Assembly: GCA_964016885.1 (NCBI GenBank)
Contig: OZ024766.1
Coordinates: forward strand, 12,090,001 to 12,154,000
Length of the DNA stretch: 64,000 nt
Source: Eledone cirrhosa
Taxonomy: Eukaryota
Direction of reading: 5' to 3'
The notes beneath the pieces were generated by a model. That model worked only from the letters and a program-made list of their open reading frames with translations, made no database searches and was not told the DNA's origin. The translations under genes were made by a program, and so were the position numbers. Positions 49,901 to 52,900 of the stretch are shown here, piece after piece. Every line of letters begins with the position of its first letter. Within the stretch, counting starts at the first letter, position 1.

Positions 49901-52900
49901 TTCTTCTTCTTCTTTATCTTCTTCTTCTTCTTTATCTTCTTCTTCTTTATCTTCTTCTTCTTCTTCTTCTTATTATTATTATTATTATTATTATTATTAT
50001 TTTTCTTCTTCTTCTTCTTCTTCTTCTTTATCTTCTTCTTCTTTATCTTCTTCTTCTTATTATTATTATTATTATTATTATTTTTCTTCTTCTTCTTCTT
50101 CTTCTTCTTCTTCTTCTTTATCTTCTTCTTATTATTATTTTTCTTCTTCTTCTTCTTCTTCTTCTTCTTCTCCTAGACACTATGGCCTGGGAACACCCCC
50201 CTCCCATGCTAATCTGATCCCCTAGGTACCGGAAGCTATCAACCACCTCTATAGAACCTACCTGCATTTGAAAAAATGTGTCTATCACTGCGGCTTCTAC
50301 TGTCTAATTTCCCTGTACATCTACTGCAGACGTATTTCTCCTTACCTGTTAGTTTGCCTGCTATCCCGCTACATCTCTTGTGTACTCAGGATCTGCATTG
50401 CATACATTTTATAGAATTTATGCCAGCTTCTCTTCTACATATCGAACATGGCCATTTCCCTGATGGAATCAGGGTTTTGTCCTCTTTTCTACTCATCAAC
50501 ACTTTAGTCTTAGCTAAGTTCACTCTTTGTCCTCTTGATTCCAAAATGCCAGCACCAACAGTTTTGCAACAGATGTCAACATGAAAGGTCCTGTTATTTT
50601 TATCTAAAGACATGTTTTCCAATTCCAACCCGCCCGTCCCCTCAATCTGTCTTATTTCTCATTCTTTCTTCTGATGAAGGACTAGCGTCCGAAACGTTAA
50701 GACCCTCTTCCTGCTATATCAAGCGTTAACCCAATATATTCCTTCCATATACTGTACCGATTGTGTTGTTATTTCTGTTTACCTTTTACATACATATATA
50801 CATATATATATATATGCCCGTCCCCTCAATCTATTTTATTTCTCATTCTTTCTTCTGATGAAGGACTAGTGTCCGAAACGTTAAGACCCTCTTCCTGCTA
50901 TATCAAGCGTTAACCCAATATATTCCTTCCATATACTGTACTGATTGTGTTGTTATTTCTGTTTACCTTTTACATACATATATATATATATGCCCGTCCC
51001 CTCAATCTATTTTATTTCTCATTCTTTCTTCTGATGAAGGACTAGTGTCCGAAACGTTAAGACCCTCTTCCTGCTATATCAAGCGTTAACCCAATATATT
51101 CCTTCCATATACTGTACTGATTGTGTTGTTATTTCTGTTTACCTTTTACATACATATATACATATATATATATATGCCCGTCCCCTCAATCTATTTTATT
51201 TCTCATTCTTTCTTCTGATGAAGGACTAGTGTCCGAAACGTTAAGACCCTCTTCCTGCTATATCAAGCGTTAACCCAATATATTCCTTCCATATACTGTA
51301 CTGATTGTGTTGTTATTTCTGTTTACCTTTTACATACATATATACATATATATATATATGCCCGTCCCCTCAATCTATTTTATTTCTCATTCTTTCTTCT
51401 GATGAAGGACTAGTGTCCGAAACGTTAAGACCCTCTTCCTGCTATATCAAGCGTTAACCCAATATATTCCTTCCATATACTGTACTGATTGTGTTGTTAT
51501 TTCTGTTTACCTTTTACATACATATATACATATATATATATATGCCCGTCCCCTCAATCTATTTTATTTCTCATTCTTTCTTCTGATGAAGGACTAGTGT
51601 CCGAAACGTTAAGACCCTCTTCCTGCTATATCAAGCGTTAACCCAATATATTCCTTCCATATACTGTACTGATTGTGTTGTTATTTCTGTTTACCTTTTA
51701 CATACATATATATGCCCGTCCCCTCAATCTATTTTATTTCTCATTCTTTCTTCTGATGAAGGACTAGTGTCCGAAACGTTAAGACCTTTTCCTGCTATTT
51801 CAAGCGTTAACCCAATATATTCCTTCCATATACTGTACTGATTGTGTTGTTATTTCTGTTTACCTTTTAGATATATATATATATGTGATTTTTTTTTTGT
51901 TTTTCAGCCAATCCTAACAAGGTGTTCCGTGTGAAAGGAGACATCCTGAAAAATAAGGTAGTCATGAAGGCCATGAGAGTTGCTGGGCAGAGGGTTAACC
52001 ACAAAGATGGAAGGATGACAATTGAGCTTCGTCCCTCGAGTGTGTTGTTTTACCATCTTATTTGGAACCCTGAAATACTCAGTGAATTCAACGTAAGTTT
52101 TACGTGTGAAATGTTGAAATCCAATCTCACAAGATCGTTAGGAATGCTAATTATTTCTACATTTGGCACAAGGCCCAGCAATTTTGACCCCCAGTGCATT
52201 ACTGGTACAATTACTCGACCCTGTTAGGATGAAAGGCATATGTATATATATGAGCACTCATACAAATCATTTCATCATCATCATTTCATTTTACGTCCGC
52301 TTTACCCTGCTTGCAAGGGTGGGACGGGAACTGATTCTGGATGCCCTTCCTAACACCAACCTCATTTACAGTGAGTGCTGGGTGCTTTTTTGCCGTGGCA
52401 CCTCCACGACCACTTTGCAGTGGAATGATAGGGACCCCAGTCCCTATCATCTCATTTCTACAGCTGGATGCCCTTCCTAACACCAACCTCATTTACAGTG
52501 AGTGCTGGGTGCTTTTTTGCCGTGGCACCTCCACGACCACTTTACAGTGTGGGCGGGGTGCTTTTTTGCCGTGGCACCTCCACGACCACTTTTCAGTGGA
52601 ATGATAGGGACCGCAGTCCCTATCATCTCATTTCTACAGCTGAAGCAATGTGAAATAAAGTGTCTTGCTCAAGGAAACAACACATCACCCGGTCTGAGAA
52701 TTGGACTCACAACCTTTCGATTGCAAGGCCAATGCTCTAACCACTAAGCCATGTGCCTCCATATATATATATATGTATGTAAAAGGTAAACAGTCCCTAT
52801 CATCTCATTTCTACAGCTGAGTAAACTGGAGCAATGTGAAATAAAGTGTCTTGCTCAAGGAAACAACACATCACCCGGTCTGAGAATTGGACTCACAACC

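Follow-up and report, generated by a model that had tools for sequence, protein, structure and literature searches.

An intron of a vitellogenin/apolipophorin-type large lipid transfer protein gene of Eledone cirrhosa holds a tandem array of seven hammerhead ribozyme motifs, located in the 64,000-nt stretch of DNA analyzed here (GenBank assembly GCA_964016885.1, contig OZ024766.1, forward-strand positions 12,090,001 to 12,154,000; hereafter the window, numbered from its first letter). We regard it as likely that the array stems from a single 5'-truncated copy of a Penelope-like element (PLE), whose 3' tip, hammerhead included, was multiplied in place, and that it is a neutral minisatellite that would cleave weakly if at all. 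It adds another case to the PLE-derived hammerhead minisatellites, a kind already described in print, and is probably ordinary transposon debris. Its value is modest, namely as a clean case for the model in which tandem hammerhead repeats arise when a Penelope tail is amplified locally.

The seven units lie head to tail on the plus strand at 50632-51869, where Tandem Repeats Finder reports a period of 184, 6.9 copies and 95% matches. Unit 1 (50632-50815, 184 bp; hammerhead 50667-50702, predicted cut after 50698) consists of the PLE 3' tip and a (CA/TA)n tail, and has kept ancestral CpGs. It is followed by unit 2 (50816-50991, 176 bp; hammerhead 50851-50886, predicted cut after 50882), by units 3, 4 and 5 of 184 bp each (50992-51175, 51176-51359 and 51360-51543; hammerheads 51027-51062, 51211-51246 and 51395-51430, predicted cuts after 51058, 51242 and 51426), by unit 6 (51544-51713, 170 bp; hammerhead 51579-51614, predicted cut after 51610) and by unit 7 (51714-51869; hammerhead 51749-51784), which stops at 51869 and is succeeded by (TA)n. 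The predicted cut in unit 7, after 51780, lies 127 nt upstream of the 3' splice site of the intron. Length variation is confined to the (CA/TA)n tail of each unit. The first 148 bases are identical in units 2-6, while units 1 and 2 show differences at 4 of 160 positions, and unit 7 has one base fewer than unit 2 plus three substitutions. The GC content of the unit is 35%.

Every unit carries the motif UCUU-CUGAUGA-A-GGAC(UAGY)GUCC-GAAA-CG-U-U-AAGA, the loop reading UAGC in copy 1 and UAGU in copies 2-7. The core (CUGANGA, GAAA and UH) is intact in all seven units, residue H17 being U, and in each of them an extra A between positions 9 and 10.1 is followed by a G10.1-C11.1 pair. Helix I (UCUU/AAGA) and helix II have 4 bp each, and stem III is the palindrome ACGU without loop 3. 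An alternative register, with A as residue 17, was rejected on inspection since helix I becomes shorter. The original prediction, made from the letters of the window alone, had described seven near-identical units of 170-184 bp with this motif, ending about 40 nt before an exon. The unit starts, the repeat finder and a hammerhead descriptor bear this out: the descriptor found nine motifs in the window, seven of which are the array units, and none in each of 30 shuffles, and 38 nt separate the array end (51869) from the exon start (51908). The description needs some amending. Copy 1 is not just a plain unit but continues about 85 bp farther 5' into the parent element (50548-50631, plus strand; part of the pseudo-long terminal repeat, or pseudo-LTR, of a 5'-truncated insertion), and this extension is also present upstream of the unit in many dispersed copies. 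Furthermore, the model-based search that had been proposed alongside a motif search gave no hammerhead: an Rfam scan of 49000-53500 at E<=5 yielded 39 matches, none of them to a hammerhead family, an outcome to be expected when helix III is lacking.

The parent Penelope-like element

A search of the 3.0-Gb genome with one unit gave 47 matches from the 40 of 154 candidates that were scored, and 40 of these matches lie beyond the window and show 92-96% identity. We fetched 23 such loci; in these the unit terminates in (CA)n or (TA)n, and the majority have further upstream sequence in common with copy 1. When followed upstream from the dispersed copies, this shared sequence led to an open reading frame (ORF) with reverse transcriptase (RT) motifs. 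A search with a piece of this RT led to 20 fetched loci, and in 15 of them, the query locus itself included, the first 244 nt of the array lie about 1.1 kb downstream on the same strand. The PLE ORFs contain DKG (locus L074), YIDD and a CX4CXXC linker, and then a GIY-YIG domain with two cysteines (VVY...LYIGQT in locus L061). Pfam found no match in the first, broken pieces of the element; in three longer ORFs it reported RVT_1 in two and GIY-YIG in one, with matches that fall below the curated cut-offs (E values of 6e-4 and 0.013).

The most complete picture came from a locus on the minus strand (L086, G000:C2:265679500-265689400), where direct repeats of 365 bp, 93% identical, flank the ORF and each contain a hammerhead region. 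This locus is a near full-length parent PLE with both pseudo-LTRs. By sequence comparison, the array unit corresponds to the 3' tip of the PLE pseudo-LTR, that is, its last ~160 nt plus the (CA/TA)n tail.

Craig et al. (2021; PMC8557442) describe endonuclease-bearing (EN+) PLEs of the Neptune and Nematis clades, in which the RT is followed by a C-terminal GIY-YIG and a CX2-5CxxC linker is present. The Eledone parent has the same RT and C-terminal GIY-YIG, the same DKG motif and CX4CXXC linker, and the same two cysteines inside GIY-YIG; pseudo-LTRs, tandem and inverted insertions and (TA)n targets are likewise common to both. Judged by these motifs, the parent is a Neptune- or Nematis-type PLE, the linker motif being common to the two clades. 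The hammerhead, in turn, resembles the minimal hammerheads of metazoan PLE pseudo-LTRs described by Cervera and De la Pena (2014; PMC4209133), with the same core, extra base at 9/10.1, G10.1-C11.1 pair, palindromic 15.2-16.2 pairs without loop 3, short helix I and pseudo-LTR location, and with the same abundance pattern of thousands of truncated copies, mostly single. It differs in helix II, which has 7-8 bp in the Schistosoma mansoni families and 4 bp here. Moreover, whereas the published minimal hammerheads flank an ORF, the Eledone tip is repeated seven times at ~180-bp spacing. The original prediction was thus right to name a Penelope-type minimal type I hammerhead whose stem III is a palindrome, as judged from the core and stem features and the pseudo-LTR location, and right to expect a parent Penelope element, as seen in the RT/GIY-YIG loci that share the tip and in both L086 pseudo-LTRs.

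Two further observations concern these elements. About 200 nt upstream of the hammerhead, the L086 pseudo-LTR has a T-rich tract ending in CAG that looks like an intron acceptor. A 563-codon open frame at L033:755-2443 belongs to a different Penelope-like family and has RT and GIY-YIG-like motifs.

Probable amplification in place and the sister arrays

The exact 34-nt hammerhead has 2,748 copies in the genome (reverse control, 0), an adjacent 34-mer of the unit occurs 6,010 times, and a looser pattern recovers 12,330 ACGU-type hammerheads, sister family included. The copies are mostly solo; among the first 100 hammerhead matches listed, there were two inverted pairs and no same-strand neighbours within 1 kb. 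The exact junction between array units, however, occurs six times genome-wide, and all six occurrences are in this array. A wider pattern for joins between tail and hammerhead gave 28 instances, of which six are here, five in one array on C26 and 17 single, and in the other joins the start point differs from join to join. Close pairs with an intact GAAA half number 25 (six here and 19 single pairs); of the 17 pairs fetched, 6 have two intact cores.

Two sister arrays derive from the same PLE tail. The C26 array (L052, G000:C26:17745414-17746100) has six copies of 155 bp, all six with GAAG in place of GAAA and with helix I lost, and the C27 array (L079, G000:C27:21596462-21597203, minus strand) has seven copies of 145 bp, all seven with G12 changed to A. 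G12 is described as the general base of the reaction (PMC6155905). Dead cores throughout both arrays imply that tandem growth of the PLE tip needs no working ribozyme. One intact and two dead-core arrays from the same tail argue, in turn, that many elements called 'retrozymes' from their sequence alone are neutral minisatellites. Array growth is also routine in this region, as the window contains 13 other tandem arrays without a hammerhead (period at least 45, at least three copies), ten of them with matches elsewhere in the window.

The C27 array drew attention for another reason. In X4, an RNA-like sequencing run from another sample of the same study whose kind is unrecorded, the junction of this array is the strongest joint among those listed, with a depth of 746 compared with 7 for the host exon of our array. 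That head-to-tail joint was considered as a circle from the present locus and ruled out, as it matches the dead-core C27 array, which may be well transcribed. Among the joints listed for the runs, a listing that omits 32 rows, the junction of the present array does not figure, and this carries no evidential weight. An SR-protein-like exon lies ~10 kb from the C27 array.

Returning to the array in the window, all seven copies have a variant at 51813 that is rare in the family, accounting for less than 1% of the summed depth in X1 (a sequencing run possibly made from the sample of the assembly itself), and this suggests that they go back to one insertion. The left junction of the insertion is unique, with one match in the genome. 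At two CpG sites copy 1 has the C of the family majority and copies 2-7 have T. The change to UAGC in the stem II loop of copy 1, noted in the original prediction, is indeed present, but UAGC is the family majority and hence the ancestral state, and the UAGU of copies 2-7 is the likely product of CpG decay. In the scenario we favour, a 5'-truncated PLE would have inserted at a (TA)n tract, in sense within the host intron. Its last 184 bp would then have been duplicated once, the second copy would have undergone CpG decay, and a recent expansion by unequal exchange or slippage would have followed, copies 2-6 being identical outside the tail. DNA-level tandem duplication is thus the likely route of multiplication, rather than RNA circles made by the ribozyme. 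Local amplification of PLE terminal sequence has also been proposed as the source of vertebrate retrozymes (Li, Clavereau and Pollet, 2026, bioRxiv 10.64898/2026.07.22.740005), and this proposed birth is what the anatomy of the Eledone array displays. The dead-core sister arrays add to that proposal that the ribozyme is dispensable for amplification. A local tandem duplication of a dead fragment had been named in the original prediction as the fallback; local duplication of a PLE fragment fits best, whereas the core is intact rather than dead, and related copies are abundant.

The competing account of the origin is that a seven-unit multimer was inserted as a whole, through rolling reverse transcription from the circular RNA of a non-autonomous retrozyme. 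The units are head to tail and near-equal in length, and such a route has been proposed for animal retrozymes (PMC7229834). An insertion of this type does not readily accommodate a copy 1 that reaches farther 5' into sequence of the linear parent and that, with its ancestral CpGs, is set apart by 4 of 160 positions from the identical copies 2-6; nor does it agree with the unique junction, the variable tail lengths and the lack of a visible target-site duplication. We consider multimer insertion very improbable and already largely refuted.

Predicted cleavage and the retrozyme question

The motif is probably a working ribozyme in the parent lineage. We assembled 20 distinct rows from this family and the sister family, with the core columns fixed by the search pattern. 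Two-sided changes in helices I and II amounted to 26 cells as compared with 11.5 in shuffled sets (0/500), a figure that reflects essentially two families and few evolutionary events. They affect three of the four pairs of helix I (U-A/C-G, U-A/A-U), the outer pairs of which are unpaired in more than half of the rows, and one of the four pairs of helix II (A-U/G-C). The covariation score was 0.381 versus 0.207 after shuffling, pairing was 81% versus 11-43% in slid controls, and G10.1-C11.1 was G-C in 20 of 20 rows. Since the fold covaries between PLE families, it is probably functional in the parent element. There, two copies of the minimal hammerhead would pair through their ACGU palindromes and so cut tandem PLE transcripts. 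In vitro, the S. mansoni minimal hammerhead is reported to show no cleavage as a monomer and low cleavage as dimers and trimers (PMC4209133). The genomic hammerhead copies show no sign of selection, as G12 decays about like other CpGs: it reads A in ~6% of the summed X1 contig depth, compared with 5% and 11% at two other CpGs, the depths being rough.

On paper, neighbouring units of the array combine into a nested double hammerhead in which ACGU/ACGU contributes 4 bp and two helices I contribute 4 bp each. ViennaRNA placed this dimer fold ~15 kcal/mol above the ensemble, in a nearest-neighbour model without tertiary contacts or an active control. The per-unit motif has a minimum free energy (MFE) of -7.7 to -8.9 kcal/mol, though in a fold other than the hammerhead. 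The monomer predicted from cut to cut is not notably structured (z -0.74; 46 of 200 shuffles fold as well), and as a circle it reaches an MFE of -10 to -15 kcal/mol with 44-48% of its bases paired. GUU, the triplet at the predicted cuts, is a poorer cleavage triplet than GUC. We picture an intronic array that would be passively co-transcribed, in which neighbours could pair and cutting would be slow and rare.

Whether such an array should be called a retrozyme depends on the definition. The operational definition of a non-LTR retrozyme given by Li et al. (2026) calls for at least two tandem units, a complete hammerhead, a motif MFE below -5 kcal/mol and a unit homologous to a PLE pseudo-LTR, and the Eledone array has all of these, with seven units. 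As in their retrozymes, every tandem unit has a hammerhead and is homologous to a PLE pseudo-LTR. Their families have up to seven units in 75% of cases, and 42-44% of the Xenopus copies are intronic, as is the Eledone array; their sample comprised 31 vertebrates, three insects and one coral. The retrozymes that form circular RNAs, as described by Cervera and de la Pena (2020; PMC7229834), have tandem units of 150-450 bp with a GC content below 45% and a type I hammerhead in each, and in these features the array (170-184 bp, 35% GC) again agrees. Those retrozymes, however, are characterized as mostly canonical type I, with the usual helix sizes and loop 1-loop 2 contacts, as having many multimer loci, and as giving abundant, highly self-paired circles. 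The Eledone array instead has a minimal core lacking the helix III loop and with a helix I of 4 bp, a unit junction at this one locus, and a monomer predicted to fold poorly. Thus, this PLE-tail minisatellite falls under the operational definition, and departs from the mobile, circle-forming one on three tested features. The retrozyme label of the original prediction survives in the first sense; as a mobile unit the array is unsupported, given the unique junction, the dead-core sisters, the unstructured monomer and the disfavoured dimer fold. Among the papers listed for octopus hammerhead ribozymes, no title or opening of an abstract announces an array of this kind.

A different possibility is that the array, although grown locally, became a working retrozyme by accident, because transcription of the host gene lets neighbours fold as double hammerheads and release monomers of 170-184 nt, some of which would be ligated to circles that the RT of the parent PLE could in principle copy. 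The seven intact cores, the sense orientation and the covariation of helices I and II between PLE families are in line with this, as are the operational definition of Li et al. and the slight in vitro cutting of dimers and trimers of comparable minimal hammerheads (PMC4209133). Against it stand the 12 bp in three short, mostly A-U helices on which the dimer would depend, the energy gap, the poorer GUU triplet, the unstructured monomer and a unit junction without daughter copies. Of nine similar Xenopus dimers, eight were uncut and one was cut (Li et al., 2026). On balance we find a working retrozyme unlikely. Equally doubtful, in our view, is its stronger form, a nascent retrozyme that is the sole intact-core multimer of a ~2,700-copy PLE hammerhead family, is driven by the host promoter and releases monomers of 170-184 nt, or circles, out of the intron. 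Should the intact array prove to cut and circularize, it would show how a retrozyme is born; the two dead-core sister arrays would then serve as natural controls, and the transition from PLE tail to retrozyme could be tested directly in an invertebrate.

The host gene, splicing and other features of the window

The host gene is on the plus strand, with Vitellogenin_N and Vit_open_b-sht exons upstream of the array and a VWD exon downstream, and the window starts inside it. The intron with the array (49717-51907, 2,191 nt) runs from GT to AG, and its flanking exons join in frame without a stop. Pfam found no match in two exons of the host gene. The downstream exon (51908-52092) has 185 nt. Between the array and this exon lie the (TA)n tail, the polypyrimidine tract of the host and the acceptor AG at 51906-51907 (51870-51907 in all). 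Array and host gene are thus both on the plus strand, confirming that the array is in sense in the host pre-mRNA.

Assembled contigs from the sequencing runs give a view of the acceptor. An X1 contig (contig 8, 51855-52183) joins the end of copy 7 to the exon with no differences. A contig of 1,048 nt from X4 (contig 16), on the other hand, matches only 51906-52093, without differences, and on either side of that match is unlike the intron, into which the X1 contig does extend; the X4 contig looks like spliced mRNA made with the normal acceptor. Two runs from two other organisms (X5 and X6) gave next to no cover on the downstream exon. The proposal that the array acts on splicing of this exon is accordingly not supported. 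Introns cut by a slow hammerhead are reported to be spliced still, while a fast ribozyme blocks splicing (Dye 2006 and Fong 2009, as cited in PMC2995048). With slow and rare cutting the host exon would therefore be spliced normally, and a selected role would be unnecessary.

Selection could nevertheless have kept or expanded the array as a regulator of the host lipoprotein gene, which would work by cutting the intron near the acceptor. Such a role has a precedent in the intronic CPEB3 ribozyme, which tunes the mRNA level and cuts in minutes (PMC10919898), and the last predicted cut is 127 nt before the acceptor. The array is, however, of recent origin and confined to one locus, in a window with 13 other arrays; its sister arrays are dead-core, and X4 uses the normal acceptor. 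A minimal core without tertiary contacts is slow (PMC4209133), and slow intronic hammerheads did not stop splicing (PMC2995048). Of the explanations considered, a regulator is the one to which we give the least credence.

Some points nevertheless weigh against the neutral minisatellite that we prefer. The gap of ~15 kcal/mol is weak evidence, because the folding model omits tertiary contacts and penalizes any hammerhead, and an active control is absent. In ViennaRNA folds of the whole array, the predicted probability of stem II is 0.36-0.43 in the amplified UAGU copies and 0.11 in copy 1, and ACGU pairing between copies reaches 0.08-0.15 for several pairs. Dimeric cleavage needs a sense orientation within a transcribed gene, which the array has, and it is the sole array of at least three units with intact cores found by these genome searches. 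The spliced-looking X4 contig stems from another sample, which may lack the array. Finally, no target-site duplication was found by eye at the insertion, and for this reason the order of events is only inferred.

Near the 3' end of the array, at 51835-51870, a C-to-G change private to copy 7 creates an AG after TACTGAT, which resembles a branch point, and a pyrimidine-rich tract. This AG is a possible cryptic 3' splice site, 37 nt upstream of the true one and frame-shifting; the X4 contig uses the true site. At the other end, the insertion adjoins an unrelated ORF fragment of a long interspersed nuclear element (50178-50547, minus strand; PHD-finger region), whose translation resembles that of a copy at 27064-27699 that matches Pfam PHD, and which we take to be RTE-like. 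Within the host gene, Vitellogenin_N exon sequence is present twice, at 14305-14700 and, in part, at 19267-19686, an exon duplication, and a single open frame of more than 1,700 codons at 37776-42929 has no Pfam match.

Lastly, the window holds other repeats and hammerhead-like motifs. One 72-bp unit has given rise to five arrays in both orientations (1-784, 30070-30435, 35153-35950, 36591-37253 and 55053-56126). Two solo hammerhead motifs of another family, at 10224-10248 and 24869-24893 on the minus strand and hence antisense to the host gene, have a stem II of 5 bp, a helix I of 3 bp and a near-palindromic stem III. In a further hammerhead-like family, stem II is long, stem III is the palindrome UGCGCA and helix I is rich in A-U; its motifs are found at 3464-3510 (minus), 3692-3738 (plus), 7494-7540 (minus) and 63297-63343 (minus), the first two forming an inverted pair, and a similar long-stem hammerhead-like family is found at 10634, 23977, 24154 and 46104.

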